64,000 nucleotides of DNA. It comes from Amphiscolops sp. MND2022. Taxonomy: Eukaryota. Positions within the stretch are counted from its first letter, which is position 1. Each line of letters opens with the position of its first letter. Where the stretch lies: NCBI GenBank assembly GCA_964187785.1, contig OZ076411.1:58218001-58282000 (forward strand), written 5' to 3'. Both the position numbers and the translations under genes were made by a program. Shown piece after piece: positions 3,921 through 54,366 of the stretch. The notes below the pieces were generated by a model. That model was not told where the DNA came from and made no database searches. It saw only the letters and a list, made by a program, of their open reading frames with translations.

Positions 3921-4017
3921 CTGAATTGAATCTCAACGAATCCAAACTTAGTACAAATAATGAATTGAATTGTTATTACTCGGAATAAGATTCAACCAAT
4001 CAAATTTGAATTACGTA

Positions 4018-6790: not shown

Positions 6791-7399
6791 GAAAATTCAC
6801 AAAGAAATACCACCACAGTTAAAGTCGCAACCAATTCTTTTTAATTTGATTTTAACTGCGTTTACGTAATTCAAAAAATTGAATTGAATCTCCAAGAATC
6901 CAAACTTACAAATAATAAATTGCGTTATCACTCGGAATAAGATTCTACCAATCAAAATTGAGTTACGTAATAAATGCTGAGATTACATGTAGAGAGCGGC
7001 GATTGACCGACCGCTCAACTGTCAGACTGTGCCTTTAGCCGATCCTATCATATATAATAGGATATCAGCGATGATGGTTGTATGGATTATAGCCGAACAG
7101 GATTAAAGTCGAATTTTTTTATAGCAGACTAGGATTGGATTCTTGATTGTAATTGGGCAAACCATTTTGGAAGCTTTAGCTTCCTAATTATTATGCAACA
7201 ATTAGATGCAGTCAGAAGAGATGGAAGTTAATGCATGTAGATTCGGTTATAATCCCAAGGGCTGTAATTCTGTTCGGGCTAAATCACGGCTAACCAGTGA
7301 TAATATTCTAGTTTTTGTTGTGAAACTATAATAGTAGTTGGTTATTATATACGCATTACAAACCGCAGGGGGGGGGGTTAGTTAGCAAAATAAAATTTC

Positions 7400-7490
7400 T
7401 ACCAAAGACTATGAGTCCCTCCCGGGACTCGAACCTCGCCGGTTGAAATAATGGGCCAGCGACCTAACCACTATGCCACGAAACCATCTC
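7400..7490 (-). ncRNA. tRNA-like Pol III cassette with terminal GNRA hairpin in the left terminus (mirror copy 32861-32960, +)
   Basis: Box A TGGCATAGTGG (7478-7468), box B GGTTCGAGTCC (7435-7425), hairpin GAGTCCC-GGGA-GGGACTC (7430-7413), then T4 runs. Does not fold into a clean cloverleaf. Confidence 0.5.
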
Positions 7491-7539
7491 AACCAGTATA
7501 TACAGGTTCTATATAAACCCAATAAATACCCAGTGAGCA

Positions 7540-7900
7540 CCCCCCGTCCACACTCTACATGCAAAAATTGAAAAATTTTGAAAATCTTACAAAAATTCGG
7601 GAAAGATATCTGAAACAATCAGAAATGAAAAAAACCACATCGTTGACATCAGAAAACAAAAAACGATAAAAAACTGTCAAAAATGTAACACCCCCCTTAC
7701 ACACTCTATATGCAAAAAATTGAAGTTTTTGAAAAACTCGGGAAAGGATCTGGAACAATCAAAATGAAAAAAAACGCATCGTTGACATCAGAAAACAAAA
7801 AAAACGATAACTGTCAAAAATGTGAACACAACCCCCCCCCCCCCTCCACAATCTACATGCAAAAAATCGAAAAATTTAAAATTTTTCAAATAACCCGAAA
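7540..7900 (+). repeat. Subterminal ~150-bp tandem repeats (~2.5 copies) with C-tracts
   Basis: CTACATGCAAAAAATTGAA...CATCGTTGACATCAGAAAACAAAAAACGATAA...CTGTCAAAAATGT-Cn recurs near 7550, 7700 and 7850, and is mirrored in each right-arm unit. Confidence 0.8.
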
Positions 7901-10068
7901 TGGTGTGAAACATTCGAAAATCTTGTTAAAAGCGTCGCAATCATCAATAATGAGGGCAAAAGGTCCCAGTAAATACTTCCTCAGGACATGTAAAATCCCA
8001 AAAACGAACAAAAACAGAAAACGGAACTTTCAACATGGAGTTTTGCAGCAAGATTTTGACCGTGGAACACAACTAAAACCAAACTATTAGAAATGTTCTT
8101 TCTGTAAACCTCATTCCAACGGCAGTCATTCATGGGAAATGAGAAACCCAAATTCAAGAGTGCCCATGACTGACTTGTAAAGTCTTTTAATTCCGCTGGT
8201 TGAACAGCTATTAATGGATTCTAGGTCGCATTATGCGGTTTGATACGAAGCAATTTATGCATTTTACAGAAATCCGTATAACTATAGTCATTGCTGCCAG
8301 TGTTTATGGTAACCGAGGATAAACAGGACTATATACCAGCAAAGCCGGAAAAAGCAAGGCTCATGCTTACCAAGTCCAATTGAGCATCATATCTGCTAAG
8401 TAATGACAAACATCGTACTTACACCTTCTGATCGTGATCATAAAGTCTTTAAAATGTAAGATACTACTACGAAGCTCCTTTCAGCGAAGGGGTATTGAAA
8501 TTTAGAAGCCAAGCATTTAACTTGTCTCGTTTTAGACTGTAAATGAGACATTATTGTGCCCATCAAGAGAAACTTTACCAGTCGGCTCTCTACCAGTAAT
8601 ATTCATCTCAATATCCAGGCGTTTAGTATTGCAGTTAATTAAAAATATATATCAAAGATATCCCTTGTGAAATCACCAATTTTTGGGTTTTGATGAGAAA
8701 CAATTTACGCTATCCAAACTTGTAAACCTTGTCTTTCTCATCTCAATTCGTGGGTATCTTTTGTCTCAAGTGTAACAGTCTGTAATCAATTGCAGGTGTA
8801 GTTTACATCCATTGCGCCAATTTTAGTACTGGATTTTCAAGCAAAAAGTAAAACAGATAGTTAATTGCACTCGATCAAATCACAACCTGGTCATCTCAGG
8901 TAAATCTAGCGAAGAGACTTCAAGTTACTTGTTTTCTGATCTTTGATACTTTCGATACTTTTCCAAAATTAAAACCTACATCTAGGGCTGTTCAGTCCCG
9001 CAATGTTTCCGCCTAACTGGAGAATAAATTCAATATACCAATAGATACTAGGTTTCATTGTGTTCAAGTATTTGTGATGGTCGAAAAAGATGATAACTCC
9101 ATCACTCCAATTATATGCTTACCGATTATTCAAGCTGCTTTCAGAGAATAGAATAAATTGACATTTCGGAAACTTTTACCACAAAATGTCATGCAAACCG
9201 GGGTTTCCTTTCGATTACCTGCAAATTAGAATAGGTACTGCTTGAAAGGTTGGCGAAAAGTCTACATATTGATAAAATTGCACGCCGGTGAGCTTTGTTT
9301 TTTGAAGGTTGCCTTGGATTGAACAGAAAGGAAACCTCACGCCCATCTTCGTTTTCAATGGTACTTCTGGAATACCTCCAACTGAGACACGGAGCTTTTA
9401 TAAAGACTCGGAGCTCTGACCAAGAATTGAATGTTTCAGATTGCATCTACCTACGAATGAGGATTCTAAATAGTGTAAAGTTGTGACCAATCAAGAGTAT
9501 GGTCTATATCGTCTCAAACATCATATCATAACCGCCCGAGCCTGACGGTAGATCAGCTGGATCTTTTCACTACTACATAGTCAAGTATCTCCCAATGTTT
9601 AGAGCTGTATATATTCGAAAAATTCACAATGCCTAGAGCTGCATATTCATGCACTTCCCATTTTCCAGAGTGAACGTTTTCTGCTAAAATTGTCTCTATT
9701 TCTTGATGCCGAGAATTACATAGAAGGTTTTGAATATTGTACTTTGCTGTTTTCATAATTCATGCAATCTCAGCAACATGAGACTGACAACATTTGTCAG
9801 TTATAAAAGCAACTTTAAAATGAGTCAGATTGAGTACGCAAAAGCTCCACTAAACAAGCTGACGCACGTTCAACAGCTGTAAAAAACATTTACACATACT
9901 GTGTCGGTACCGCTTTTGATCTTATCCAGCGTCGCACTCTGCAGAGTCTGTTTGCTTAATTATTTTCTAATTGTTTGACTGATGTTAAAAACAAATGCCA
10001 CCCGGGACACGCTATTGAAGCCACTGTCTAATGATTAATCACAAGTACAAAGTTCCGGTGTCGCTTTC

Positions 10069-10299
10069 ATGTTTACACAGCGTGTCGCTTTATTTAATCA
10101 ATATGGACTTGGCAACTACAGAGATCTATTGATCCAATATCAATCTTGCATCCGGTCTGCTCGGCCAAAACAAAAACAATCCATACTAAATTTTGTTTAC
10201 GATGAACTAGCGAATGGAAATGATTTGAATTTTGAGGTCTCGATTCTGTTTCAATCATTAGTATCTTGTTTCAAAACATTCATCAAATTTAGTGAATGA
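10069..10299 (+). CDS. Small orphan ORF (76 aa) present in all four copies
   Basis: Same length and almost the same translation at 21273-21503, 25596-25826 and 29912-30142. No recognisable motif. Confidence 0.3.
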   Translation: MFTQRVALFNQYGLGNYRDLLIQYQSCIRSARPKQKQSILNFVYDELANGNDLNFEVSILFQSLVSCFKTFIKFSE

Positions 10300-10487
10300 A
10301 AAAAGAATAGCAAGCCATTTCCGTGGTGTAAAAGTTTTGTGCCTGGTAAACATTGTTCTGTATGCAACAAGTTCTCTGTTGTGTTAAATGTCATTGAGCT
10401 TCAGTTTACTTCAAGTATTTTGTCAGTTAATTTTTTTCAGACGTTTGTCTTGAGATCACCGGTAGCACAGCATAATCACCAGTCAAA

Positions 10488-10871
10488 ATGTATCAGAAAT
10501 CAGCCATGACTTCCAGCTCTCCCACATCCTCAAAAGATCTCGAGTTCGGAGATGCCCATATTGACGTGGCATCATCTGATAAACGGCTTGTCCGCGTGAC
10601 CACAAACACATATAAAAACAGTGGTCTTACATTCATCAACATCAAGTTGTTCAAGAAAAATGAGGATCAAGAAGACTTTCGCATGCAACAGAGAGTGGGT
10701 CTCACTGTCAAGGAGTTTCAGGAAATTATAGCGAATGTAGAAAATATTAGCATGGGCCCTCCCAGTCCAGACGGCAGTACGGGGGAGAAGAAAATCAATA
10801 AGAGGATTGCTCAAAGCTATACGGGAACTGCTGTCGTCAAGAAGCCAAAAACTGCTGATAAGAAGGAATGA
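10488..10871 (+). CDS. PC4/Sub1-like ssDNA-binding protein (127 aa); right-arm copies frameshifted
   Basis: KRLVRVTTNTYKNSGLTFINIKLF...QRVGLTVKEFQEIIANVENI parallels the PC4 pattern RYVSVRDFKGKVLIDIREY...[20 protein letters not shown]. Basic C-terminal tail. By-eye match only. Confidence 0.6.
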   Translation: MYQKSAMTSSSPTSSKDLEFGDAHIDVASSDKRLVRVTTNTYKNSGLTFINIKLFKKNEDQEDFRMQQRVGLTVKEFQEIIANVENISMGPPSPDGSTGEKKINKRIAQSYTGTAVVKKPKTADKKE

Positions 10872-11815
10872 AAAGTTGTACAACTCATTTCAAAAGTAAT
10901 TACAGCATACAAGTTTCGTTAATGTTCCTAGTTTTAATCCGTTTTTATAACCATTAATTGTAGTAAAATAGGTTTTTCGAATGTTTTTGCTTCTATTTCA
11001 TTTTTCTTGCATCGGTACATCCCATGTTCTCAATCGTTTTTTTTTGTTGAACTGTGCTTTAATGCTTTCTTTTGTTTGTCCCTGATTTTGTCTTTTCTTC
11101 AATCTACCCTTTCTATCATTAGTTTTTTATCATTTATTTCGTTTTTGTTTCCATTGCATACGCTCCTCTCCTCATTTACGCTCTATCCCATCTTATACTG
11201 TAACGTATCGATTTGAGTTTACTTTCGATGAAGTGTTGTTGTTCCCTTCCTGTGGTATCCGCTCTTTTTTGCAATTTTCACCTCTTATACGTTTAAATTA
11301 ATTACTTGATTTACCTTTTTAATGTGCTTTGTTCTATTTTCTCCTGTCGTTGTTCCAAATCTGTACGTTAAGGGAGTATTCAATATTTAGCTAATCCCCA
11401 CTATTTCGTTTGTTGGTGTGATGCTTTTGTTTAATCTCAAAGTCCAGTGAAGTAATATATATTCGATATATACATTTTTTCAGCTCGTAGGTTTTTGAAT
11501 TAGTTTCATTCATCCCGAGTTTTTTTTCGTTGTTGAGGTAGTATTGGGTATTGAAAACACTTCGTGAAAAACTACTCAAAAATTTTTTCACTCCTTTATA
11601 TTTTATAGCAACATTGATGAAAAACATCCTTTTCCGAACGTTTTTGAGTAAGGGAATCTTTTCGGTGGCGGTTCTCCAGAATGTGCAAGCATCTTGAAAC
11701 TCGAATTGTCTCATGGAACTGTAAAACCCGTGATCCAAGCAACTTTTTGATTTTGTATAGTCAATGTGAAGTAATTGTATCAACTTTCATTTACAATTTT
11801 TTTTGTAGACGAAAC

Positions 11816-12262
11816 ATGGTGGAAGCAATGCATGAACAGCATCCGGACTTTTTCAAAAAACATCGGGAAAGGTTTCGGTACCTGGTGTTAGAAAAGGAAC
11901 CAAGGATTGGGCTTGACATTCCCTCAGGATCAAATTACGCATTTGGAGTTCATTCTTCAACCTCTGATTATCTTTGCGGCTTTGAGAAACAACCACACTA
12001 CCATGTTCTTTTTGAGTGGGATTCCAATATTAGAAAAGGTTACAATGTACCCTGCCTCTATTCAACTTTCTGTCTACTGTTGGCGGATTGTTCGAGTCTC
12101 GTTATGCAAGGTGAAATTATGAATCGTCTGCAGGTTGCAATGAAGTACAACGTAAAAGAAAACAAAACCTTGCTAGCGCAGGGTCGACGCAAAGTTCCTG
12201 TTGTTCAAATCAGACGAGACAAAAGTGTTCAAAACTGGTTTTTTACCGACTGCCACGTTTAG
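11816..12262 (+). CDS. Hypothetical protein with HUH-endonuclease-like motifs (ORF open from 11681)
   Basis: KQPHYHVLF (PHYHVLF at 11993-12013) followed ~50 aa later by YNVK (Tyr at 12146). The right-arm copy has a premature TAA at 19676-19678. Confidence 0.45.
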   Translation: MVEAMHEQHPDFFKKHRERFRYLVLEKEPRIGLDIPSGSNYAFGVHSSTSDYLCGFEKQPHYHVLFEWDSNIRKGYNVPCLYSTFCLLLADCSSLVMQGEIMNRLQVAMKYNVKENKTLLAQGRRKVPVVQIRRDKSVQNWFFTDCHV

Positions 12263-13276
12263 CCGATTTCAATAGTTGATTCAAGGCCCATCGGCTGCAA
12301 CTTTGTATAGAGTCTTGGACATTCTCAATGACGTATACGGAAGCATCGACACTACTAATTTGTATTTTTCGATTGACAATTCCAAAACTTTGTAAAGCTT
12401 GCATAGTTTATGAGGAATACATTGTGACATGAATATAATCTTCAAACCACTGTTTCCTTGTCAACGTCAGCCAGTGCTTGACAGCAAAAAATGGTTAGGG
12501 ATCAAAATTGATCAGTCAGGTATAAATAAATTGGATCATTGTGTACTGACATGTTTGCACTATCAAAAATTCATCTGAACGCTGGTAACGCTTAGTAGTA
12601 AATTTTGATTACATGAGGGAATTGCGCCGTTAGATTCAAACAAACTGAATCTTTGTGTAGTGGCATTTTAACGCTGTCATCGATTTATCTGAATACTGCG
12701 CATATAGTGACCGTGACAAAAACAATAAAACCTTGAAAAAGTAGGAGTATCAGTTTCACGATACTCGGAAACGAGAGCTGTAATTTGATGCATGTAATTT
12801 TAGTGTAGTAAAATACATGTAGTTCTATACATGTACTGTGTAGTCAATGAGTCAGGTCAGATATTGAGATGTAATACTCCAGGGTACAAGCATCGTTTAC
12901 TCAATGATTAATAAGACGATATACGCAACGAATAAACTGCAATACATGCTTTGTTTGCCGTTGCAAACCTAATTCTTCCTTTTCAACTCCGTCAAGCAAC
13001 TCGTTCCAACCAGTTCTTTCGAAACTCAAAACGTCACTGTAGAGCAAAAACTTTGATAGAATGTGCCCACTCATACACATTGTATTTTGGTTGTTCCTAA
13101 ATCCAATGGCGTTTAGTGTTGAGCAGAATCATTAACTCTCAAGCTCAGATAACAATCTAGAGTAGAAATAGAAATCGGCCAAATTGTACATTCGTCTTTT
13201 TTTCAAATTTGATCTTTTGTGAATAATTGGGCGCACTCTTCAACTTGTCAGCAGCTGAGCTACTATTAAACTATCA

Positions 13277-13858
13277 ATGCAGACTTTCACTGCTGTGTGT
13301 GGTAACTCGCCGTTCACATTTTATGAAACTTGGTTCAATAAAACAATAGCCATAATTGAAGAAACACGGTGGGAGGACATCTGGTCGATAAAAAGGTCAG
13401 TTTCGATCCCAAAAGATTTGTTTATTCTGCTGCGAGCTGAATGTGTATCGGGTACTAATCCAAATAGCTTCAACCTAACGGACATTCTAGAAACGCCATT
13501 CACTACAACAATAGTTTTTGATCGTTTCGAGTTGCCGTATGGTGTACGACAGCTTCTGTTTGACATTGATTGTCGAAATATACCCGTTTCAGAAAATCAG
13601 TTGGGTTGCATGACAGACTTGGAAAATTTAGAAAGTTACTGGGATATTAGAAGTCCCCCTGAATCACCACAAGAAGCTTCATGTTCTCTGTTGCCAAAGA
13701 TTGTCGACACAAATCAAGAGCAAATTGCTTGTGACAGTCCAATCAAATCAGAAACTAGCCCAATAAAGGAATCCCCGCCAGCACCAAAGAAGTATAGAGT
13801 CGAAAAATTCAAAAGGGAGGCATTGCAAATAGCTAAACTTGATCTCGCAGACGTTTGA
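13277..13858 (+). CDS. Orphan 193-aa protein, intact in both arms (partner 17679-18272, -)
   Basis: Longest ATG-initiated ORF in the arms and open in both copies. S/P-rich region and basic PPAPKKYRVEK (possible NLS) near the C-terminus. Confidence 0.55.
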   Translation: MQTFTAVCGNSPFTFYETWFNKTIAIIEETRWEDIWSIKRSVSIPKDLFILLRAECVSGTNPNSFNLTDILETPFTTTIVFDRFELPYGVRQLLFDIDCRNIPVSENQLGCMTDLENLESYWDIRSPPESPQEASCSLLPKIVDTNQEQIACDSPIKSETSPIKESPPAPKKYRVEKFKREALQIAKLDLADV

Positions 13859-14238
13859 CAAACATTCATGATGTGATGTTTTATAACTTGTTTGTTTGTA
13901 TCATCGTTCAAATCATTGCTTCAGTTTTGTCTATCAAGTCATTCTGTAATAAACTTTTCAGCTATTCTTTTCCCTGATGCCTAGCTTGATCACCTCACAA
14001 GAGTAAATTCGTGCTACTTTGAGTACTTGAATCCATAACGATTGATTAGAGAAAATTGATATTGCAGCTTGTCTCAACAATCAGAGTGGGCGAGGAAAAA
14101 AAAACAAAATAACCACGCCTTGATTCTGAATAACCCTTTACTTATAATCACTCTTCTATGTAAAGCCAATTCTTTTCAGAAAACGAAAAATGGTCAAGAA
14201 ATATTTTGGAAAATTAACTTTACACTGTTAGTTTGAAG

Positions 14239-14810
14239 TCATCTCTTCTCAGATTTTTGCCGTTGAATACAAACTCCAATACGTAGCATTGATTGTTTTT
14301 CGAAGAATTGATCGATGGTCTCAGTAAAAATTAAATGTTTCATGGCTCGTTCGACGCGGTAGCCAGCCGGAGTGATTTTCATCTGTCTCCTAGAAGTTTT
14401 TTCATCTCTGCTCTTGACGTCTTTCAAGAACACTGACAAGATGAAAGGACCTTTCAACTCCTTTTCGTTTGGATCCACCAATTCTACAGAGACCGATAAA
14501 ATTTCGCCGAATGTTGTCTCCAGCATTGGCTCCAGAATAAATTTGACCGTTACCTCAATTTTTCTCCAACGCGTTCAGACTGTAGGTTGAAGCAAGACTT
14601 TGCGAGAGTTTTACTAAAGACACACAATACAGGTTCTTGCTCACTGACGATAGTAGCTGCAAAGGCCTTGAGGTGCTCGAACGCTTCCTTGTCAGTTTTT
14701 ATTATTGCCATGCATTCTCTAATACAAGTATTCGTCAATATGGGTGTGCAAAAACCCACAGTCGAGTCCGAAAGAATATCACATAAATTTGTGTGAACAC
14801 CATCTGACAT
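14239..14810 (-). CDS. Split ORF pair (86 aa + 95 aa), probably one gene; mirrored at 16729-17297 (+)
   Basis: Adding one A in GAGAAAAATTGAG would fuse ...GEK IEVTVKFILEPMLET... The break is the same in both arms. Confidence 0.4.
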
Positions 14811-15137
14811 TGTCTGAAGTAGAGCAGAATTTTTTTAAAACTAATTTTTAAGGTTCATGTTCAATCTAGTTCTTTCAAACATTTGGGGACGACAATCTAT
14901 TTTCGTACTTTCGATATGAACCTGAACTAATTTTGATACCCATTTTCCAGCTTCACTGGTAATCGAGGTGATATCCGTTTTGTTTGAAAAGACGTCTCTT
15001 CGAAGTTATTATAGTAACGTACCGCTAACGACTGATATTGTTAATTATAGCTCTCAGGTTACCGATTGAGGTTAAAGAAGTCTGAATCAGGGAAAAATTT
15101 AAGATATACACTGATGAAACTTTTCTGATCATTGAGT

Positions 15138-16434
15138 CTAATCAGTGGACGTTCTCATTCCTATCGTCTGTAGCAGCTCGTGAAAACTAAGTTGGAAGTA
15201 CAGTTTGATATTTAAATTAGTTTCAAGATTATAAAACAAAACGAACTTGACATTTTTGTTCACAAAATAAATACTTCCTTCTCTAGAAAATGTAACTTCG
15301 ATGAACATTGAATCCTCCTTAAGGTATCCATGATCTCTGCTGCATCCATGTAACAAGCTTGAAAAAAAATTGATCACATTCATTCGAACTTTTTCAAGGC
15401 AAATTTTGTTTGGAATTGTCTCACCTGTGTGGTAGGAATTGCAGTATCCCAACCGACATGTTTCCTTTACACGAAGACGGACGCTTGAAGGAGCTCCCAG
15501 TTTTTTTTACTAGGGACTATTGATCGCGTCCATCTATCAGCAGGATCATATTGACTAATGACGCTGGTTTTGATTGTAGACTTGAATAGCCATTTGAGAA
15601 TAGCATCATACATTCCGGGAACTGTGGCAACAAAAACAGAAACGTGATTGCCAGCTGCCACTTCGCATCCAAATGGAAATAGTCTCACATACAAAGAATA
15701 TCCGAGAGAACCTGTGAATATTATTGGGCTACAAAAGTCTGTTGGCACTTTTTCAAATTTTGATTTCACTTCTTCAGCTCTTTTCGCCGCCTCGAAAAAT
15801 TTGTTGAAGCCACTGATTTTCCAAACAACTGACCCATCACGGCCACATTCCAGACTTTTTATACGATCGAGCAAATGGCGAGAAAATTGCTCAAGTGGAA
15901 CCATTTTTTTTCGAGTATCTTTCAATCAATTTGTTTTGACGCTTCATGACATCTTTGTTTAGACCTTCTCTTTTCACAGGCTTAACCTCCAAGCTGCTTT
16001 CCTTGATTTCGGCACTGCTTGCTGAGTTTTCCTTGATTTCACCACTGCGTTTTGCTGCATTGAATAGATTAGACTGAAGTCTAGTTTCTTTTAGTCCAAT
16101 CCTTTGACTCGAGACCTCGAGATTATTTGTAGAGCCAGAGGTTTTCCTTGTTTCACAGACAGTTTTTTCGCTTTTCCTTTCAATCATCTCATTCCTTAGT
16201 TGCGATAGCTCTTCTCGCATTCCGGCAGTAATAACTTGCATTGAATGGATGTACTGGAACACTTTTACATTGAGTAAGGGGAACTTTTTCGCCAGTGATT
16301 TGAGTTTTCAAGCAGAGAACCTCATCTCGCAATTTGTTGAAACAGGCTACTGGTTCTTCATTTTGGTTGAGACTCAAATGGTCCTCAGCGTTTCGCGGCT
16401 CTGACAAGTTTGAAGTTGCAGATTTGCTTCCCAT
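15138..16434 (-). pseudogene. TRAF-like gene (coiled coil + MATH/TRAF-C domain), one intron, three +1 frameshifts in homopolymer runs
   Basis: DGSVVWKISGF...CSPIIFTGSLGYSLYVRLFPFG...GNHVSVFV...YDAILKWLF, then SSFKRPSS...VGILQF and GYLKEDSMFIEV, follows the TRAF MATH consensus. GTGAGA...TTTTTTTTCAAG intron at 15424-15358 restores the frame. Frameshifts lie in a C4/A5 run (~16280) and two A8 runs (15904-15911, 15501-15508). Confidence 0.85.
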
Positions 16435-17678
16435 TGAGAAACTCTGAAAAAGATTTTTGAAAATATAGTAGATGGCTTGGTGAGATTGCATGCCTATTTT
16501 GAAAAAATATAGTACATGGCTTGGTGAGATTGCATGCCTAGAAAAGACGTTATTCAAGACCCATTGTCACCTCGTTTTACCAGTGAAGCTGGAAAATGGG
16601 TATCAAAATTAGTTCAGGTTCATATCGAAAGTACGAAAATAGATTGTCGTCCCCAAATGTTTGAAAGAACTAGATTGAACATGAACCTTGAAAATTAGTT
16701 TTAAAAAAATTCTGCTCTACTTCAGACAATGTCAGATGGTGTACACACAAATTTATGTGATATTCTTTCGGACTCGACTGTGGGTTTTTGCACACCCATA
16801 TTGACGAATACTTGTATTAGAGAATGCATGGCAATAATAAAAATTGACAAGGAAGCGTTCGAGCACCTCAAGGCCTTTGCAGCTATTATCGTCAGTGAGC
16901 AAGAACCTGTATTGTGTGTCTTTAGGAAAACTCTCGCAAAGTCTTGCTTCAACCTACAGCCTGAACACGTGGGAGAAAAATTGAGGTAACGGTCAAATTT
17001 ATTCTGGAGCCAATGCTGGAGACAAGATTCGGCGAAATTTTATCGGTCTCTGTAGAATTGGTGGATCCAAACAAAAAGTTGAAAGGTCCTTTCATCTTGT
17101 CAGTGTTCTTGAAAGACGTCAAGAGCAGAGATGAAAAAACTTCTAGGAGACAGATGAAAATCACTCCGGCTGGCTACCGCGTCGAACGAGCCATGAAACA
17201 TTTAATTTTTACTGAGACCATCGATCAATTCTTCGAAAAACAATCAATGCTACGTATTGGAGTTTGTATTCAACGGCAAAAATCTGAGAAGAGATGACTT
17301 CAAACTAACAGTGTAAAGTTAATTTTCCAAAATATTTCTTGACCATTTTTCGTTTTCTGAAAAGAATTGGCTTTACATAGAAGAGTGATTATAAGTAAAG
17401 GGTTATTCAGAATCAAGGTGTGGTTATTTTGTTTTTTTTTTCCTCACCCACTCTGATTGTTGAGACAAGCTGCAATATCAATTTTCTCTAATCAATCGTT
17501 ATGGATTCAAGTACTCAAAGTAGCACGAATTTACTCTTGTGAGGTGATCAAGCTAGGCATCAGGGAAAAGAATAGCTGAAAAGTTTATTACAGAATGACT
17601 TGATAGACAAAACTGAAGCAATGATTTGAACGATGATACAAACAAACAAGTTATAAAACATCACATCATGAATGTTTG

Positions 17679-18272
17679 TCAAACGTCTGCGAGATCAAGT
17701 TTAGCTATTTGCAATGCCTCCCTTTTGAATTTTTCGACTCTATACTTCTTTGGTGCTGGCGGGGATTCCTTTATTGGGCTAGTTTCTGATTTGATTGGAC
17801 TGTCACAAGCAATTTGCTCTTGATTTGTGTCGACAATCTTTGGCAACAGAGAACATGAACCTTCTTGTGGTAATTCAGGGGGACTTCTAATATCCCAGTA
17901 ACTTTCTAAATTTTCCAAGTCTGTCATGCAACCCAACTGATTTTCTGAAACGGGTATATTTCGACAATCAATGTCAAACAGAAGCTGTCGTTCACCATAC
18001 GGCAACTCGAAACGATCAAAAACTATTGTTGTAGTGAATGGCGTTTCTAGAATGTCCGTTAGGTTGAAGCTATTTGGATTAGTACCCGATACACATTCAG
18101 CTCGCAGCAGAATAAACAAATCTTTTGGGATCGAAACTGACCTTTTTATCGACCAGACGTCCTCCCACCGTGTTTCTTCAATTATGGCTATTGTTTTATT
18201 GAACCAAGTTTCATAAAATGTGAACGGCGAGTTACCACACACAGCAGTGAAAGTCTGCATTGATAGTTTCAT
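17679..18272 (-). CDS. Right-arm copy of the 193-aa orphan protein
   Basis: Near-identical translation with a few substitutions (I/V, V/E, S/L, A/G). Confidence 0.55.
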   Translation of the reverse strand: MKLSMQTFTAVCGNSPFTFYETWFNKTIAIIEETRWEDVWSIKRSVSIPKDLFILLRAECVSGTNPNSFNLTDILETPFTTTIVFDRFELPYGERQLLFDIDCRNIPVSENQLGCMTDLENLESYWDIRSPPELPQEGSCSLLPKIVDTNQEQIACDSPIKSETSPIKESPPAPKKYRVEKFKREALQIAKLDLADV

Positions 18273-19964
18273 AGTAGCTCAGCTGCTGACAAGTTGAAGA
18301 GTGCGCCCAATTATTCACAAAAGATCAAATTTGAAAAAAAACGAATATACAATTTGGCCGATTTCTATTTCTACTCTAGATTGATATCTGAGCTTGAGAG
18401 TTAATGATTCTGCTCAACACTAAACGCCATTGGATTTAGGAACAACCAAAATACAATGTGTATGAGTGGGCACATTCTATCGAAGTTTTTGCTCTACAGT
18501 GACGTTTTGAGTCTTGAAAGAACTGGTTGGAACGAGTTGCTTGACGGAGTTGAAAAGGAAGAATTACGTTTGCAACGGCAAACAAAGTATGTGTTGCAGT
18601 TTAATCGTTGCGTATATAGTCTTATTAATCATTGAGTAAACGATGCTTGTACCCTGGAGTATTATATCTCAATATCTGACCTGACTCATTGACTACACAG
18701 TACATGTATAGAACTACATGTATTTTACTACACTAAATTTACATGCATCAAATTACAGCTCTCGTTTCCGAGTATCGTGAATCTGATACTCCTACTTTTT
18801 CAAGGTTTTATTGTTTTTGTCACAGTCACTATATGCGCAGTATTCAGATAAATTGATGACAGCGTTAAAATGCCACTACACAAAGATTCAATTTGTTTGA
18901 ATCTAACGGCGCAATTCCCTCATGTAATCAAAATTTACTACTAAGCGTTACCAGCGTTCAGATGAATTTTTGATAGTGCAAAAATGTCAGTACCCAATGA
19001 TCCAATTTATTTATACCGGACTGATCAATTTTGATCCCTAAACATTTTTTGCTGTCAAGCACTGGCTGACGTTGACAAGGAAACAGTGGTTTGAAGATTA
19101 TATTCATGCCACATTGTATTCCCCATAAGCAATGCAAGCTTTACAAAGTTTTGGAATTGTCAATCGAAAAATACAAATTAGTAGTGTCGATGCTTCCGTA
19201 TACGTCATTGAGAATGTCCAAGATTCTATACAAAGTTGCAGCCGATGGGCCTTGAATCAACTGCTGAAATCGGCTAAACGTGGCAGTCGGTAAAAAACCA
19301 GTTTTGAACACTTTTGTCTCGTCTGATTTGAACAACAGGAACTTTGCGTCGACCCTGCGCTAGCAAGGTTTTGTTTTCTTTTACGTTGTACTTCATTGCA
19401 ACCTGCAGACGATTCATAATTTCACCTTGCATAACGAGACTCGAACAATCCGCCAACAGTAGACAGAAAGTTGAATAGAGGCAGGGTACATTGTAACCTT
19501 TTCTAATATTGGAATCGCACTCAAAAAGAACATGGTAGTGTGGTTGTTTCTCAAAGCCGCAAAGATAATCAGAGGTTGAAGAATGAACTCCAAATGCGTA
19601 ATTTGATCCTGAGGGAATGTCAAGCCCAATCCTTGGTTCCTTTTCTAACACCAGGTACCGAAACCTTTTCCGATGTTAGTTGAAAAAGTCCGGATGCTGT
19701 TCATGCATTGCTTCCACCATGTTTCGTCTACAAAAAAAAACTGTAAATGAAAGTTGATACAATTACTTCACAATGACTATACAAAATCAAAAAGTTGCTT
19801 GGATCACGGGTTTTACAGTTCCATGAGACAGTTCGAGTTTCAAGATGCTTGCACATTCTGGAGAACCGCCACCGAAAAGATTCCTTTACTCAAAAACGTT
19901 CGAAAAAGGATGTTTTTCATCAATGTTGCTATAAAATATAAAGGTGTGAAAAAATTTGTGTAGT

Positions 19965-22900
19965 TTTTCACGAACTGTTTTCAATACCCAATACTCTCAA
20001 CAACGAAAAAAAACTCGGGATGAATGAAACTAATTCGAAAACCTACGAGCTGAAAAAATGTATATATCGAATATATATTACTTCACTGGACTTTGAGATT
20101 AAACAAAAGCATCACACCAACAAACGAAATAGTGGGGATTAGCTAAATATTGAATACTCCCTTAACGTACAGATTTGGAACAACGACAGGAGAAAATAGA
20201 ACAAAGCACATTAAAAAGGTAAATCAAGTAATTAATTTAAACGTATAAGAGGTGAAAATTGCAAAAGAGCGGATACCACAGGAAGGGAACAACAACACTT
20301 CATCGAAAGTAAACTCAAATCGATACGTTACAGTATAAGATGGGATAGAGCGTAAATGAGGAGAGGAGCGTATGCAATGGAAACAAAAACGAAATAAATG
20401 ATAAAAAACTAATGATAGAAAGGGTAGATTGAAGAAAAGACAAAATCAGGGACAAACAAAAGACAGCATTATAGCACAGTTCAACAAAAAAACGATTGAG
20501 AACATGGGATGTACCGATGCAAGAAAAATGAAATAGATGCAAAAACATTCGAAAAACCTATTTTACTACAGTTAATCGTTATGAAAACGGATTAAAACTA
20601 GGAACATTAACAAAACTTGTATGCTGTAATTACTTTTGAAATGAGTTGTACAACTTTTCATTCCTTCTTATCAGCAGTTTTTGGCTTCTTGACGACAGCA
20701 GCCCCCGTATAGCTTTGAGCAATCCTCTTATTGATTTTCTTCTCCCCTGTACTGCCGTCTGGACTGGGAGGGCCCATGCTAATATTTTCTACATTCGCTA
20801 TAATTTCCTGAAACTCCTTGACAGTGAGACCCACTCTCTGTTGCATGCGAAAGTCTTCTTGATCCTCATTTTTCTTGAACAACTTGATGTTGATGAATGT
20901 AAGACCACTGTTTTTATATGTGTTTGTGGTCACGCGGAAAAGCCATCAGATGATGCAACGTCAATATGGGCATCTCCAAACTCGAGATCTTCTGAGGATG
21001 TGTGAGAGCTGGAAGTCATGGCTGATTTCTGATACATTTTGACTGGTGATTATGCTGTGCTACCGGTGATCTCAAGACAAACGTCTGAAAATTATTCGTC
21101 TCAAAAATTAACTGACAAAATACTGACAAACGTCTCAAAAATTAACTGACAAAATACTTGAAGTAAACTGAAGCTCAATGACATTTGACACAACAGAGAA
21201 CTTGTTGCATACAGAACAATGTTTACCAGGCACAAAACTTTAACACCACGGAAATGGCTTGCTATTCTTTTTTCATTCACTAAATTTGATGAATGTTTTG
21301 AAACAAGATACTAATGATTGAAACAGAATCGAGACCTCAAAATTCAAATCATTTCCATTCGCTAGTTCATCGTAAACAAAATTTAGTATGGATTGTTTTT
21401 GTTTTGGCCGAGCAGACCGGATGCAAGATTGATATTGGATCAATAGATCTCTGTAGTTGCCAATTCCATATTGATTAAATAAAGCGACACGCTGTGTAAA
21501 CATGAAAGCGACACCGGAACTTTGTATTTATTGATTGTTTATTACACAGTAGCTTCAATAGGCGTGTCGCGAGTGGCATATAGATCTCCGTAGTTACAAA
21601 TTCCAGATTGATCAAACAGAGCGACACGCTGTGTAAACATGAAAGCGACGTCGGCCCTTTGTACTTGTGATTAATCATTAGACAGTGGCTTCAATAGCGT
21701 GTCCCGGGTGGCATTTGTTTTTAACATCAGTCAAACAATTAGAAAATAATTAAGCAAACAGACTCTGCAGAGTGCGACGCTGGATAAGATCAAAAGCGGT
21801 ACCGACACAGTAGGTGTAAATGTTTTCTACAGCTGTTGAACGTGCGTCAGCTTGTTTAGTGGAGCTTTTGCGTACTCAATCTGACTCATTTTAAAGTTGC
21901 TTTTATAACTGACAAATGTTGTCAGTCTCATGTTGCTGAGATTGCATGAATTATGAAAATAGCAAAGTACAATATTCAAAACCTTCTATGTAATTCTCGG
22001 CATCAAGAAAGAGACAATTTTAGCAGAAAACGTTCACTCTGGAAAATGGGAAGTGCATGAATATGCAGCTCTAGGCATTGTGAATTTTTCGAATATATAC
22101 AGCTCTAAACATTGGGAGATACTTGACTATGTAGTAGTGAAAAGATCCAGCTGATCTACCGTCAGGCTCGGGCGGTTATGATATGTTTGAGACGATATAG
22201 ACCATACTCTTGATTGGTCACAACTTTACACTATTTAGAATCCTCATTCGTAGGTAGATGCAACCTGAAACCTTCAATTCTTGGTCAGAGCTCCGAGTCT
22301 TTATAAAAGCTCCGTGTCTCAGTTGGAGGTATTCCAGAAGTACCATTGAAAACGAAGATGGGCGTGAGGTTTCCTTTCTGTTCAATCCAAGGCAACCTTC
22401 AAAAAACAAAGCTCACCGGCGTGCAATTCTATCAATATGTAGACTTTTCGCCAACCTTTCAAGCAGTACCTATTCTAATTTGCAGGTAATCGAAAGGAAA
22501 CCCCGGTTTGCATGACATTTTGTGGTAAAAGTTTCCGAAATGTCAATTTATTCTATTCTCTGAAAGCAGCTTGAATTATCGGTAAGCATATAATTGGAGT
22601 GATGGAGTTATCATCTTTTTCGACCATCACAAATACTTGAACACAATGAAACCTAGTATCTATTGGTATATTGAATTTATTCTCCAGTTAGGCGGAAACA
22701 TTGCGGGACTGAACAGCCCTAGATGTAGGTTTTAATTTTGGAAAAGTATCGAAAGTATCAAAGATCAGAAAACAAGTAACTTGAAGTGTCTTCGCTAGAT
22801 TTACCTGAGATGACCAGGTTGTGATTTGATCGAGTGCAATTAACTATCTGTTTTACTTTTTGCTTGAAAATCCAGTACTAAAATTGGCGCAATGGATGTA

Positions 22901-25900
22901 AACTACACCTGCAATTGATTACAGACTGTTACACTTGAGACAAAAGATACCCACGAATTGAGATGAGAAAGACAAGGTTTACAAGTTTGGATAGCGTAAA
23001 TTGTTTCTCATCAAAACCCAAAAATTGGTGATTTCACAAGGGATATCTTTGATATATATTTTTAATTAACTGCAATACTAAACGCCTGGTTATTGAGATG
23101 AATATTACTGGTAGAGAGCCGACTGGTAAAGTTTCTCTTGATGGGCACAATAATGTCTCATTTACAGTCTAAAACGAGACAAGTTAAATGCTTGGCTTCT
23201 AAATTTCAATAACCCTTCGCTGAAAGGAGCTTCGTAGTAATATCTTACATTTTAAAGACTTTTATGATCACGATCAGAAGGTGTAAGTACGATGTTTGTC
23301 ATTACTTAGCAGATATGATGCTCAATTGGACTTGGTAAGCATGAGCCTTGCTTTTACCGGCTTTGCTGGTATATAGTCCTGTTTATCCTCGGTTACCATA
23401 AACACTGGCAGCAATGACTATAGTTATACGGATTTCTGTAAAATGAATAATTTGCTTCGTATCAAACCGCATAATGCGACCTAGAATCCATTCATAGCTG
23501 TTCAACCAGCGGAATTAAATGACTTTACAAGTCAGTCATGGGCACTCTTGAATTTGGGTTTCTCATTTCCCATGAATGACTGCCGTTGGAATGAGGTTTA
23601 CAGAAAGAACATTTCTAATAGTTTGGTTTTAGCTGTGTTCCACGGTCAAAATCTTGCTGCAAAACTCCATGTTGAAAGTTCCGTTTTCTGTTTTTGTTCG
23701 TTTTTGGGATTTTACATGTCCTGAGGAAGTATTTACTGGGACCTTTTGCCCTCATTATTGTAATTGCGACGCTTTTAACAAGATTTTTGAATGTTTCACA
23801 CCATTTCGGGTTATTTGAAAAATTTTAAATTTTTCGATTTTTTGCATGTAGATTGTGGAGCGGGGGTGGTGTTCACATTTTTGACAGTTATCGTTTTTTT
23901 TTGTTTTCTGATGTCAACGATGCGTTTTTTTTCATTTTGATTGTTCCAGATCCTTTCCCGAGTTTTTCAAAAATTTTAATTTTTTGCATGTAGAGTGTGT
24001 AAGGGAGGGGGGGGCGGTGTTACATTTTGACAGTTTTTTATCGTTTTTTGTTTTCTGATGTCAACGATGTGGTTTTTTTTATTTCTGATTCTTCCAGATA
24101 CTTTCCCGAATTTTTGTAATATTTTCAAAATTTTTCAATTTTTGCATGTAGAGTGTGGGCGGGGGGGGGGGGGTGCTCACTGGGTATTTATTGGGTTTAT
24201 ATAGAACCTGTATATACTGGTTGAGATGGTTTCGTGGCATAGTGGTTAGGTCGCTGGCCCATCATTTCAACCGGCGAAGTTCGAGTTTTCACGAACTGTT
24301 TTCAATACCCAATACTATCTCAACAACGAAAAAAAACTCGGGATGAATGAAACTAATTCGAAAACCTACGAGCTGAAAAAATGTATATATCGAATATATA
24401 TTACTTCACTGGACTTTGAGATTAAACAAAAGCATCACACCAACAAACGAAATAGTGGGGATTAGCTAAATATTGAATACTCCCTTAACGTACAGATTTG
24501 GAACAACGACAGGAGAAAATAGAACAAAGCACATTAAAAAGGTAAATCAAGTAATTAATTTAAACGTATAAGAGGTGAAAATTGCAAAAGAGCGGATACC
24601 ACAGGAAGGGAACAACAACACTTCATCGAAAGTAAACTCAAATCGATACGTTACAGTATAAGATGGGATAGAGCGTAAATGAGGAGAGGAGCGTATGCAA
24701 TGGAAACAAAAACGAAATAAATGATAAAAAACTAATGATAGAAAGGGTAGATTGAAGAAAAGACAAAATCAGGGACAAACAAAAGACAGCATTATAGCAC
24801 AGTTCAACAAAAAAACGATTGAGAACATGGGATGTACCGATGCAAGAAAAATGAAATAGATGCAAAAACATTCGAAAAACCTATTTTACTACAGTTAATC
24901 GTTATGAAAACGGATTAAAACTAGGAACATTAACAAAACTTGTATGCTGTAATTACTTTTGAAATGAGTTGTACAACTTTTCATTCCTTCTTATCAGCAG
25001 TTTTTGGCTTCTTGACGACAGCAGCCCCCGTATAGCTTTGAGCAATCCTCTTATTGATTTTCTTCTCCACTGTACTGCCGTCTGGACTGGGAGGGCCCAT
25101 GCTAATATTTTCTACATTCGCTATAATTTCCTGAAACTCCTTGACAGTGAGACCCACTCTCTGTTGCATGCGAAAGTCTTCTTGATCCTCATTTTTCTTG
25201 AACAACTTGATGTTGATGAATGTAAGACCACTGTTTTTATATGTGTTTGTGGTCACGCGGAAAAGCCATCAGATGATGCCACGTCAATATGGGCATCTCC
25301 AAACTCGAGATCTTCTGAGGATGTGTGAGAGCTGGAAGTCATGGCTGATTTTTGATACATTTTGACTGGTGATTATGCTGTGCTACCGGTGATCTCAAGA
25401 CAAACGTCTGAAAATTATTCGTCTCAAAAATTAACTGACAAAATACTGACAAACGTCTCAAAAATTAACTGACAAAATACTTGAAGTAAACTGAAGCTCA
25501 ATGACATTTGACACAACAGAGAACTTGTTGCATACAGAACAATGTTTACCAGGCACAAAACTTTAACACCACGGAAATGGCTTGCTATTCTTTTTTCATT
25601 CACTAAATTTGATGAATGTTTTGAAACAAGATACTAATGATTGAAACAGAATCGAGACCTCAAAATTCAAATCATTTCCATTCGCTAGTTCATCGTAAAC
25701 AAAATTTAGTATGGATTGTTTTTGTTTTGGCCGAGCAGACCGGATGCAAGATTGATATTGGATCAATAGATCTCTGTAGTTGCCAATTCCATATTGATTA
25801 AATAAAGCGACACGCTGTGTAAACATGAAAGCGACACCGGAACTTTGTATTTATTGATTGTTTATTACACAGTAGCTTCAATAGGCGTGTCGCGAGTGGC

Positions 25901-28900
25901 ATATAGATCTCCGTAGTTACAAATTCCAGATTGATCAAACAGAGCGACACGCTGTGTAAACATGAAAGCGACGTCGGCCCTTTGTACTTGTGATTAATCA
26001 TTAGACAGTGGCTTCAATAGCGTGTCCCGGGTGGCATTTGTTTTTAACATCAGTCAAACAATTAGAAAATAATTAAGCAAACAGACTCTGCAGAGTGCGA
26101 CGCTGGATAAGATCAAAAGCGGTACCGACACAGTATGTGTAAATGTTTTCTACAGCTGTTGAACGTGCGTCAGCTTGTTTAGTGGAGCTTTTGCGTACTC
26201 AATCTGACTCATTTTAAAGTTGCTTTTATAACTGACAAATGTTGTCAGTCTCATGTTGCTGAGATTGCATGAATTATGAAAATAGCAAAGTACAATATTC
26301 AAAACCTTCTATGTAATTCTCGGCATCAAGAAAGAGACAATTTTAGCAGAAAACGTTCACTCTGGAAAATGGGAAGTGCATGAATATGCAGCTCTAGGCA
26401 TTGTGAATTTTTCGAATATATACAGCTCTAAACATTGGGAGATACTTGACTATGTAGTAGTGAAAAGATCCAGTTGATCTACCGTCAGGCTCGGGCGGTT
26501 ATGATATGTTTGAGACGATATAGACCATACTCTTGATTGGTCACAACTTTACACTATTTAGAATCCTCATTCGTAGGTAGATGCAACCTGAAACCTTCAA
26601 TTCTTGGTCAGAGCTCCGAGTCTTTATAAAAGCTCCGTGTCTCAGTTGGAGGTATTCCAGAAGTACCATTGAAAACGAAGATGGGCGTGAGGTTTCCTTT
26701 CTGTTCAATCCAAGGCAACCTTCAAAAAACAAAGCTCACCGGCGTGCAATTCTATCAATATGTAGACTTTTCGCCAACCTTTCAAGCAGTACCTATTCTA
26801 ATTTGCAGGTAATCGAAAGGAAACCCCGGTTTGCATGACATTTTGTGGTAAAAGTTTCCGAAATGTCAATTTATTCTATTCTCTGAAAGCAGCTTGAATT
26901 ATCGGTAAGCATATAATTGGAGTGATGGAGTTATCATCTTTTTCGACCATCACAAATACTTGAACACAATGAAACCTAGTATCTATTGGTATATTGAATT
27001 TATTCTCCAGTTAGGCGGAAACATTGCGGGACTGAACAGCCCTAGATGTAGGTTTTAATTTTGGAAAAGTATCGAAAGTATCAAAGATCAGAAAACAAGT
27101 AACTTGAAGTGTCTTCGCTAGATTTACCTGAGATGACCAGGTTGTGATTTGATCGAGTGCAATTAACTATCTGTTTTACTTTTTGCTTGAAAATCCAGTA
27201 CTAAAATTGGCGCAATGGATGTAAACTACACCTGCAATTGATTACAGACTGTTACACTTGAGACAAAAGATACCCACGAATTGAGATGAGAAAGACAAGG
27301 TTTACAAGTTTGGATAGCGTAAATTGTTTCTCATCAAAACCCAAAAATTGGTGATTTCACAAGGGATATCTTTGATATATATTTTTAATTAACTGCAATA
27401 CTAAACGCCTGGTTATTGAGATGAATATTACTGGTAGAGAGCCGACTGGTAAAGTTTCTCTTGATGGGCACAATAATGTCTCATTTACAGTCTAAAACGA
27501 GACAAGTTAAATGCTTGGCTTCTAAATTTCAATAACCCTTCGCTGAAAGGAGCTTCGTAGTAATATCTTACATTTTAAAGACTTTTATGATCACGATCAG
27601 AAGGTGTAAGTACGATGTTTGTCATTACTTAGCAGATATGATGCTCAATTGGACTTGGTAAGCATGAGCCTTGCTTTTACCGGCTTTGCTGGTATATAGT
27701 CCTGTTTATCCTCGGTTACCATAAACACTGGCAGCAATGACTATAGTTATACGGATTTCTGTAAAATGAATAATTTGCTTCGTATCAAACCGCATAATGC
27801 GACCTAGAATCCATTCATAGCTGTTCAACCAGCGGAATTAAATGACTTTACAAGTCAGTCATGGGCACTCTTGAATTTGGGTTTCTCATTTCCCATGAAT
27901 GACTGCCGTTGGAATGAGGTTTACAGAAAGAACATTTCTAATAGTTTGGTTTTAGTTGTGTTCCACGGTCAAAATCTTGCTGCAAAACTCCATGTTGAAA
28001 GTTCCGTTTTCTGTTTTTGTTCGTTTTTGGGATTTTACATGTCCTGAGGAAGTATTTACTGGGACCTTTTGCCCTCATTATTGTAATTGCGACGCTTTTA
28101 ACAAGATTTTTGAATGTTTCACACCATTTCGGGTTATTTGAAAAATTTTAAATTTTTCGATTTTTTGCATGTAGATTGTGGAGCGGGGGTGGTGTTCACA
28201 TTTTTGACAGTTATCGTTTTTTTTTGTTTTCTGATGTCAACGATGCGTTTTTTTTTCATTTTGATTGTTCCAGATCCTTTCCCGAGTTTTTCAAAAATTT
28301 TAATTTTTTGCGAGTGTGTAAGGGAGGGGGGGGGCGGTGTTACATTTTGACAGTTTTTTATCGTTTTTTGTTTTCTGATGTCAACGATGTGGTTTTTTTT
28401 ATTTCTGATTCTTCCAGATACTTTCCCGAATTTTTGTAATATTTTCAAAATTTTTCAATTTTTGCATGTAGAGTGTGGACGGGGGGGGGTGCTCACTGGG
28501 TATTTATTGGGTTTATATAGAACCTGTATATACTGGTTGAGATGGTTTCGTGGCATAGTGGTTAGGTCGCTGGCCCATCATTTCAACCGGCGAAGTTCGA
28601 GTTTTCACGAACTGTTTTCAATACCCAATACTATCTCAACAACGAAAAAAAACTCGGGATGAATGAAACTAATTCGAAAACCTACGAGCTGAAAAAATGT
28701 ATATATCGAATATATATTACTTCACTGGACTTTGAGATTAAACAAAAGCATCACACCAACAAACGAAATAGTGGGGATTAGCTAAATATTGAATACTCCC
28801 TTAACGTACAGATTTGGAACAACGACAGGAGAAAATAGAACAAAGCACATTAAAAAGGTAAATCAAGTAATTAATTTAAACGTATAAGAGGTGAAAATTG

Positions 28901-31900: not shown

Positions 31901-32921
31901 TTATGATCACGATCAGAAGGTGTAAGTACGATGTTTGTCATTACTTAGCAGATATGATGCTCAATTGGACTTGGTAAGCATGAGCCTTGCTTTTACCGGC
32001 TTTGCTGGTATATAGTCCTGTTTATCCTCGGTTACCATAAACACTGGCAGCAATGACTATAGTTATACGGATTTCTGTAAAATGAATAATTTGCTTCGTA
32101 TCAAACCGCATAATGCGACCTAGAATCCATTCATAGCTGTTCAACCAGCGGAATTAAATGACTTTACAAGTCAGTCATGGGCACTCTTGAATTTGGGTTT
32201 CTCATTTCCCATGAATGACTGCCGTTGGAATGAGGTTTACAGAAAGAACATTTCTAATAGTTTGGTTTTAGTTGTGTTCCACGGTCAAAATCTTGCTGCA
32301 AAACTCCATGTTGAAAGTTCCGTTTTCTGTTTTTGTTCGTTTTTGGGATTTTACATGTCCTGAGGAAGTATTTACTGGGACCTTTTGCCCTCATTATTGT
32401 AATTGCGACGCTTTTAACAAGATTTTTGAATGTTTCACACCATTTCGGGTTATTTGAAAAATTTTAAATTTTTCGATTTTTTGCATGTAGATTGTGGAGC
32501 GGGGGTGGTGTTCACATTTTTGACAGTTATCGTTTTTTTTTGTTTTCTGATGTCAACGATGCGTTTTTTTTTCATTTTGATTGTTCCAGATCCTTTCCCG
32601 AGTTTTTCAAAAATTTTAATTTTTTTGCATGTAGAGTGTGTAAGGGAGGGGGGGGGCGGTGTTACATTTTGACAGTTTTTTATCGTTTTTTGTTTTCTGA
32701 TGTCAACGATGTGGTTTTTTTTATTTCTGATTCTTCCAGATACTTTCCCGAATTTTTGTAATATTTTCAAAATTTTTCAATTTTTGCATGTAGAGTGTGG
32801 ACGGGGGGGTGCTCACTGGGTATTTATTAGGTTTATATAGAACCTGTATATACTGGTTGAGATGGTTTCGTGGCATAGTGGTTAGGTCGCTGGCCCATCA
32901 TTTCAACCGGCGAAGTTCGAG
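19965..32921 (+). repeat. Tandem triplication of a ~4.32-kb unit (19965-24285, 24286-28601, 28602-32921)
   Basis: The same ORFs recur at offsets 4323 and 4316. Both junctions read GTTCGAG|TTTTCACGAAC. Confidence 0.95.
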
Positions 32922-54343: not shown

Positions 54344-54366
54344 CTCCCTTGATCTTCATTTTCCTG

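Follow-up and report, generated by a model that had tools for sequence, protein, structure and literature searches.

Mavericks have the ends (AGT)2//(ACT)2 and are associated with a 6-bp target duplication (PMC8097293), and Mavericks/Polintons have terminal inverted repeats (TIRs) that measure 100-1,500 bp (PMC10748475). Here we analyze a palindromic relative of these elements that has a TRAF gene in its central loop and lies in a 64,000-nucleotide stretch of the genome of Amphiscolops sp. MND2022 (GenBank assembly GCA_964187785.1, contig OZ076411.1, positions 58,218,001 to 58,282,000 of the forward strand; hereafter the window). Autonomous Mavericks/Polintons share with the palindrome the (AGT)2 ends, the 6-bp duplication and related accessory genes, together with a protease that survives as a remnant in a sister palindrome family (PMC8097293, PMC10748475). 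The palindrome differs from them in having no PolB, integrase, ATPase or capsid and in its repeats of ~7.7 kb, which lie far outside the range given above.

Host-derived cargo and enlarged repeats have precedents. Nematode Mavericks likewise carry intron-bearing, putatively host-derived cargo (wasp proteases and krma kinases), which sits between the TIR and the integrase of largely complete elements, whereas here a TRAF sits in the loop of a palindrome free of core genes, with host donor lineage and shared intron traced (10.1101/2022.07.12.499685). Butterfly polintons also have genes duplicated in enlarged TIRs of ~2 kb and are mobile despite loss of polB, but they keep capsid and protease and carry transposable-element cargo, while the arms of the palindrome are four times longer, its core genes are gone and its cargo is a host signalling gene (10.1101/2025.02.07.637071). 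In planarians, another animal lineage, the giant gypsy elements Burro/GYPSM1 (MATH_TRAF_C, BIR, BCL2-like) similarly combine env-related gypsy with MATH/TRAF and are a precedent for both gypsy families described below; here, however, TRAF is a separate open reading frame (ORF) between env and the 3' long terminal repeat (LTR), its host paralogues can be traced, and a DNA element shares the lineage (PMC6431247). A TRAF-like ORF is also annotated in viruses with adinto-like genes, again a TRAF-like gene in a Polinton-related virus; that label comes from structure prediction in non-animal datasets, and its legend describes no intron, donor, selection or palindrome (10.1101/697771). Intron-bearing Maverick cargo, enlarged gene-containing TIRs, PolB-less polintons, MATH in planarian gypsy and a TRAF-like label in adinto-like viruses are already known. 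In the open-access literature (subscription journals, Repbase and supplements being outside the scope), we found no description of a palindromic Maverick derivative with TRAF cargo and no report of a single TRAF lineage in both DNA and retro elements.

Our overall reading, which we consider probable, is that the window contains a broken TRAF copy lodged in the loop of a ~17-kb palindrome that has Maverick ends and no core genes and is likely mobilized by full Mavericks, and that a host TRAF paralogue was likely captured as DNA and kept, the likely reason being that the encoded protein competes with TRAF signalling of the host to the benefit of the element. In TNFR/TLR, NF-kB and JNK signalling, TRAFs serve as adaptors. 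A sequence-only reading of the window had taken the loop for the unique spacer of a palindrome and had assigned to it a minus-strand gene encoding a coiled coil and a MATH (TRAF-C) domain without RING or zinc fingers, carried by a virus-like element. The loop is indeed flanked by inverted arms, and Pfam recognizes a MATH domain at 15470-15925 of the minus strand (PF21355, E 2.2e-13; PF22486, E 5e-11), with PF21355 reaching E 2e-17 in an open loop copy. All 28 PDB matches of the loop protein are TRAFs, the best being TRAF4-type chains (E 3e-16 to 1e-14) and TRAF1 reaching only 1e-9. By alignment alone, the TRAF-N segment corresponds to the part that precedes MATH in solved TRAF chains and to the LERFVMH helix of cellular orthologues. 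Pfam found neither the N-terminal RING nor the TRAF zinc fingers that mark TRAF2-6 in the open TRAF copy. Human TRAF1, a RING-less TRAF with a regulatory role, has the same coiled coil plus TRAF-C layout, but the element sequence is nearer to TRAF4-type chains and belongs to an acoel-type lineage.

The 67-bp GT-AG intron that had been proposed at 15424-15358 is real: it splices GILQFLPH onto SLLHGCSRDHGYLKEDSMFIEV with the reading frame kept, and its donor is invariant among the copies examined below. The proposal of a coding sequence from ATG 16434 survives only in part. The ATG is present, but the frame changes three times, near 16298, 15911 and 15508, stop codons intervene, and the final exon overshoots its usual stop; the window copy is therefore a pseudogene. 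Additional introns as the cause of these frame changes were ruled out, since open copies translate straight through them. The tandem duplication of ~44 bp upstream of the gene exists as described, but it is incidental because the strict motif occurs twice in just 2 of 30 copies.

A search of the 1.07-Gb genome with the loop DNA, in which 40 of 82 candidates were scored, showed that many copies carry the same cargo. Among the candidates scored, ~40 long loop matches with 80-88% identity lie on 10 chromosome-size contigs. In the 30 best copies the donor AG|GTGAGA is intact without exception, the intron measures 61-72 nt and is mostly no multiple of three, and the second exon was recovered in 29; the invariant donor, the variation in length and the recovery of this exon place the intron beyond chance. 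The element TRAF also retains 71 of the 95 residues that are invariant across 10 cellular rows. Comparison of copies by the ratio of non-synonymous to synonymous change (dN/dS) points to purifying selection, as the TRAF-N + MATH part gave 0.18 between two palindrome subfamilies (confidence interval 0.07-0.43), although such values come from single pairs with few changes (12 synonymous and 8 non-synonymous in the domain). Between the same subfamilies the N-terminal block gave 0.16 (0.03-0.57) and the linker 0.61 (0.28-1.55); averages over open copies were 0.21 for TRAF-N + MATH, 0.20 for the N-terminal block and 0.72 for the linker. The element TRAF domain thus appears to be under purifying selection between subfamilies.

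The origin of the gene can be followed into the host. Two multi-exon cellular TRAF paralogues (called 1 and 2 below), at C3:90.87 Mb and C3:25.70 Mb, have their last intron at the same codon and in the same phase as the element TRAF. The nearest named relative belongs to the acoel Convolutriloba macropyga, with 72% across the MATH exon, and its gene model splices at the element's intron site, which makes an acoel host probable. Because intron site and phase are common to the two host paralogues and the Convolutriloba orthologue, the simplest reading is that the TRAF was probably captured from a host as DNA, as had been suggested from the intron alone; an intron gained inside the element is ruled out by the same intron in host genes. 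The idea that the element itself had removed the RING fared differently. The full-length Convolutriloba orthologue has no RING or zf-TRAF match in Pfam, so the RING-less state is inherited from the host lineage rather than made by truncation in the element. The N-terminus of this orthologue contains one Cys/His cluster, recognized by eye, and relative to the host protein the element TRAF has lost only this cluster and the C-terminal tail. A motif search, the sole method used, revealed no RING exons in the ~20 kb, interrupted by a retrotransposon, upstream of host paralogue 1, and a zf-TRAF search returned one other locus. Two long-branch TRAFs of the same lineage come from other assemblies (P0141 and P0142); the ORF of P0141 stops at this shared intron site, and the gene may itself be carried by an element. 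Viral and JGI metagenome contigs yielded no confirmed relative of the element TRAF, of ORF2 or of P0141.

The element that carries the TRAF is virus-like, as had been surmised, with Maverick ends, target duplications and Maverick genes in its arms. A typical family member measures ~17 kb, of which arms of ~7.6-7.8 kb make up about 90%; in the window the element extends from 7333 to 33017, enlarged by triplication of a 4.32-kb segment that may be specific to this insertion (a recent duplication) or an assembly artefact. Inverted arms stand beside the loop in 26 of 30 excised loci. Ten copies were taken with 10 kb of flank per side for end mapping; their arms reach 7.8 kb, and AGTAGT...ACTACT ends with a 6-bp target duplication, the 6-mer differing at each site, occur in the window and in 7 of the ten, the remaining three being truncated or rearranged. 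Two insertions of the sister family likewise have a 6-bp target duplication.

When a 2.1-kb arm segment was compared, left and right arms were mutual nearest neighbours in 6 of the 9 copies bearing both, with distances of 0.2-1.6% within those copies as against 0.4-9% between copies; of the other pairs, one was partly nearest, one young copy was unresolved and one was a mosaic. Since the two arms are nearest neighbours in most copies, they seem to be equalized at copying and to drift after insertion. The arms of one palindrome (L041/L042) belong to different subfamilies and are 3.6% apart, the right arm being 1% from another copy; these mixed arms are the product of recombination between copies. 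Among 20 loci picked for odd arm spacing, 7 had TRAF, 2 had the TRAF 3' end only, 6 had deleted or rearranged centres and 5 belonged to the sister family.

The genome also contains complete relatives, with 93 PolB matches. Eight full Mavericks with mapped ends have the same terminal hexamer and 6-bp duplications. An ORF2 homologue led to six loci, all of them Mavericks of ~19 kb that encode ATPase, integrase, capsid-like protein, protease and PolB; each of the six also has relatives of the three arm genes ORF1, ORF2 and ORF3, 28-58% identical. Neither the window element nor any of 44 palindrome loci gave a match to PolB, integrase, ATPase or capsid (tblastn, E 0.01; PolB queries from two local Maverick families), and the adenovirus-like protease is not in the TRAF palindrome family. 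A protease remnant (E about 1e-15) does lie at the loop in 4 of 5 sister-family loci, where the mirrored order protease, inverted ORF2, ORF1 is that of full Mavericks. Because the sister family mirrors protease and accessory genes in this way, we infer that the palindrome is an inverted dimer of one Maverick end. It would work as a Maverick satellite and, judged by its sequence, would be classed as a non-autonomous, inverted-dimer derivative and not as an autonomous Maverick.

Members of the sister palindrome family (L115, L118, L130, L132, L133, L147-L150) have the same arm genes at ~75% DNA identity, a ~600-bp loop with the protease remnant, and long subterminal tandem arrays. A Maverick clade (L156/L143, L157-L159, L162-L163, L165-L166, L169-L170, L173-L174) has HUH-like and PC4/PUR-like accessory genes that lie between its protease and PolB genes, and close to one of its ends an ORF with a weak EGF-like match in Pfam; as four of its copies share an identical ORF2 protein, the clade is young.

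Related TRAFs occur in retrotransposons. A MATH search of the genome returned 440 candidates, of which 150 were scored; the best 30 loci comprise 19 of a family B, 9 of a family C and 2 cellular loci. In all 28 loci of families B and C an intron-less TRAF adjoins an env-like gene, and the two families, which are related, are gypsy elements whose LTRs measure 2.1 kb and which encode a fusion protein of Monjiviricetes type. Their TRAFs gave dN/dS of 0.13 and 0.04, and together the two families likely number well over 100 copies. The position of TRAF between env and the 3' LTR was observed at L099-L101 (C10:48.22-48.24 Mb) and L102-L104 (C7:40.08-40.10 Mb).

A first TRAF tree of 23 rows, built in quick mode, had long branches. 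A second tree of 14 rows omitted nine of these (two outgroups, two long cellular rows, both gypsy-C rows and three redundant element rows), and the results that follow, which do not include gypsy-C, derive from it. Gypsy-B TRAF joins host paralogue 1 (support 92/97), while the approximately unbiased test rejects a placement with paralogue 2 (p-AU 0.035). The palindrome TRAF, in turn, is rejected as partner of paralogue 1 (p-AU 0.021) and allowed with paralogue 2 (0.144). The donor paralogue is weakly resolved because the element TRAF lies on a long branch and is equally similar to all cellular rows. A single clade of palindrome and gypsy-B has a p-AU of 0.162 and is not rejected.

The mechanism that we propose is as follows. 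The palindrome would have arisen as an inverted dimer of one Maverick end, through template switching or fold-back in protein-primed replication, and both arms would be equalized in each round of copying by fold-back of the displaced strand and then drift apart in the manner of LTRs. PolB and integrase would be supplied in trans by full Mavericks by virtue of the common AGTAGT ends. The captured piece would correspond to the final pair of coding exons in an acoel TRAF that lacked RING, without the zinc-finger remnant and the C-terminal tail. Its coiled-coil + MATH product, which has no ligase domain, would associate with the host paralogue's partners and so damp or redirect stress, death or innate-immune signalling in cells where the element is active, a suggestion that we put at a little under an even chance.

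Several observations weigh against this reading of a captured and retained gene in a Maverick satellite. The first exon is open in 6 of the 30 best copies and broken in 24, the window copy among them, and the selection estimates suffer from the scarcity of changes given above. No TRAF match was present in the full Mavericks taken, the sister palindrome family has dispersed without TRAF, and full Mavericks share with the palindrome no more than the terminal hexamer and a G-run. Since full Mavericks and the sister family both do without it, TRAF is unnecessary for spread. Each host paralogue has one further intron within the captured span, at differing sites, and the element has neither; its TRAF branch is long (1.8 changes per site) and its similarity to all cellular rows is 54-59%. 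Some of these points would suit a TRAF that is a passenger, any use of which was in an earlier full Maverick and which the palindrome drags along as it decays. The broken copies and the sister family agree with this, as do several palindromes that have lost the loop partly or wholly, but dN/dS falls below 1 between palindrome subfamilies that are only dS 0.12 apart, which argues that selection acted during the palindrome's own spread, and this constraint is confined to the folded parts. Splice signals retained in 29-30 of 30 copies and the conservation of related TRAFs in two gypsy families likewise speak against a mere passenger, which we hold to be distinctly unlikely. Were there no mobile element at all, with a host TRAF family grown by segmental duplication and the palindrome a local rearrangement or an assembly artefact, the near-identical triplication of the right arm could be explained as such an artefact; this proposal is contradicted by unrelated flanks and distinct 6-bp duplications at 8 insertions, by Maverick genes in the arms and by an architecture that is constant across chromosomes, and is scarcely conceivable.

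The route and number of captures can be weighed in the same manner. The additional host introns would fit retro-capture through a partly spliced mRNA that retained the last intron only, in a genome where reverse transcriptases are abundant. However, the two introns do not share a site, and cellular relatives that consist of a single ORF on genomic contigs (P0134, P0136) are without them, which gives them the look of later gains. Cellular ORFs P0134, P0136, P0138 and P0140 are, like the element, unbroken across the entire first exon; given the absence of the extra introns from such single-ORF relatives in other assemblies, the element likely preserves an older two-exon layout. No poly(A) remnant was seen 3' of the gene, and we judge retro-capture very improbable as against capture as DNA. 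If a single capture as DNA had been followed by later gain of TRAF in gypsy via RNA, with loss of the intron (or by a relay in the reverse direction), there would be no convergence between the two kinds of element. The p-AU of the joint palindrome and gypsy-B clade allows for this, long branches blur the tree, and palindrome and gypsy-B TRAFs are missing identical portions of the host protein at the N- and C-terminus. Against it stand the placement of gypsy-B with paralogue 1 and the two rejected groupings, an N-terminal motif block that divides palindrome from gypsy-B TRAFs as the tree does, and the proteins themselves, which are just 28% identical, less than either is to host MATH. One capture is thus unlikely in our estimation. 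Independent captures of the palindrome and gypsy TRAFs are favoured by these comparisons, though not proven.

The features of the palindrome are collected in Table 1.

Table 1. Coordinates of the palindromic element and its genes in the window.
Feature	Position	Strand	Remarks
Left target-site duplication, 6 bp	7327..7332		Identical 6-mer on both flanks
Left arm, giant TIR of ~7.6 kb, begins AGTAGT	7333..14971	+	97% identity to right arm
Arm ORF1, accessory gene of Mavericks; weak hint of a PC4/PUR-like single-strand-binding fold	10491..10871	+	Counterparts in six full Mavericks are 44-58% identical
Arm ORF2, accessory gene of Mavericks that has an HxH motif and may have an HUH-like fold; frameshifted here	11819..12392	+	34-39% identity to full-Maverick ORFs
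Arm ORF3, Maverick accessory gene	13259..13858	+	28-34% identity to the full-Maverick ORF that lies upstream of PolB
Arm ORF4, ~190 aa in other copies, oriented away from loop; broken here	14245..14834	-	
Unique loop of palindrome	14972..16566		Between inverted arms; ~40 genome copies at 80-88% identity
TRAF last exon, end of MATH domain	15138..15357	-	27 residues in most copies; extends to 15138 here
67-nt GT-AG intron, phase 2	15358..15424	-	Site is that of host TRAF paralogues
TRAF first exon: N-terminal helical block, linker, TRAF-N, most of MATH	15425..16434	-	Three frameshifts here
44-bp tandem duplication, limited to lineage of window copy	16455..16540		
Right arm, ends ACTACT, enlarged by tandem triplication	16567..33017	-	
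Mirror ORF4, head to head with TRAF gene; broken	16705..17291	+	
Mirror ORF3	17682..18278	-	
Mirror ORF2; broken	19144..19717	-	
Three tandem copies of 4.32-kb arm segment, each with split ORF1	19965..32922		99.6% identity
Right target-site duplication, 6 bp	33018..33023		

The arm genes are themselves of interest. ORF2 has 127 relatives, and across 38 rows H60 and H62 are conserved in at least 90%, whereas a Tyr that opens the next helix is frequent yet below 90%. Its model is confident (predicted local distance difference test, pLDDT, 92), and the nine best structure rows all belong to HUH or related origin-binding domains, with weak scores (Z 3.6-4.7, root-mean-square deviation 3.1-5.2, 74-85 aligned); the top HUH Rep domains score Z 3.5-4.7, and the best Foldseek E of 0.043 is also weak. 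ORF2 had no Pfam or PDB sequence match, and an atlas search returned unnamed clusters alone. A HUH nuclease as a nematode Polinton gene was considered as a parallel and dropped, since PMC10748475 does not use the term. For ORF1 the model is poor (pLDDT 43), its top four structure rows are Pur-alpha and a PC4 homologue (Z 4.8-5.2), and there was again no Pfam or PDB sequence match. No family was found for ORF3 or ORF4, and ORF4 had no Pfam match. With dN/dS of 0.13 and 0.25, ORF2 and ORF3 appear to be under purifying selection, and the interval around the value for ORF1 (0.45) includes 1. The putative folds of ORF1 and ORF2, neither assignment being secure, would suit the handling of single-stranded or hairpin DNA.

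Other features of the window are of a different nature. A sequence near the terminus at 7410-7490 looks tRNA-like by eye, and neither ARAGORN nor Rfam gave a match there. A 295-bp sequence at 39012-39306 recurs, at 98-99% identity, in three palindrome copies (L031-L034, L049-L050), in each of their two arms, and is a small mobile element acquired by one palindrome subfamily. A Ty1/copia retrotransposon with ~245-bp LTRs (97% identical) and a split gag-pol occupies 50583-55843, and at 3386-6793 inverted repeats of 544 bp (95%) surround a copia reverse-transcriptase fragment (4196-4810). At 58176-59060 and 55840-56376 there are a 172-bp satellite array and an ORF whose match to the SHPRH helical domain is weak (E 4e-5, below cut-off).

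Mavericks are known to carry host genes, and donor, route and selection are seldom visible together. Here the intron of the element TRAF marks a DNA route and the intron-less gypsy relatives mark an RNA route, while the conservation of all three element TRAFs points to one host adaptor that is useful to two kinds of mobile element. We tentatively propose, as a generalization that may well fail, that animals harbour giant fold-back Maverick satellites with swappable loop cargo, which resemble copy-back defective virus genomes except that they are inherited and spread, and that one RING-less TRAF lineage was captured independently by such a DNA satellite, intron included, and in intron-less form by retrotransposons that bear env, because it controls a host pathway by which mobile elements are restricted. 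Surveys that require PolB and integrase would overlook such palindromes, and the equalization of arms at each insertion offers a direct genomic test of fold-back replication in Mavericks. Mobile elements in this genome likely benefit from a TRAF adaptor, possibly through dampened host defence signalling, which provides a testable entry to how a simple animal restricts its endogenous viruses.

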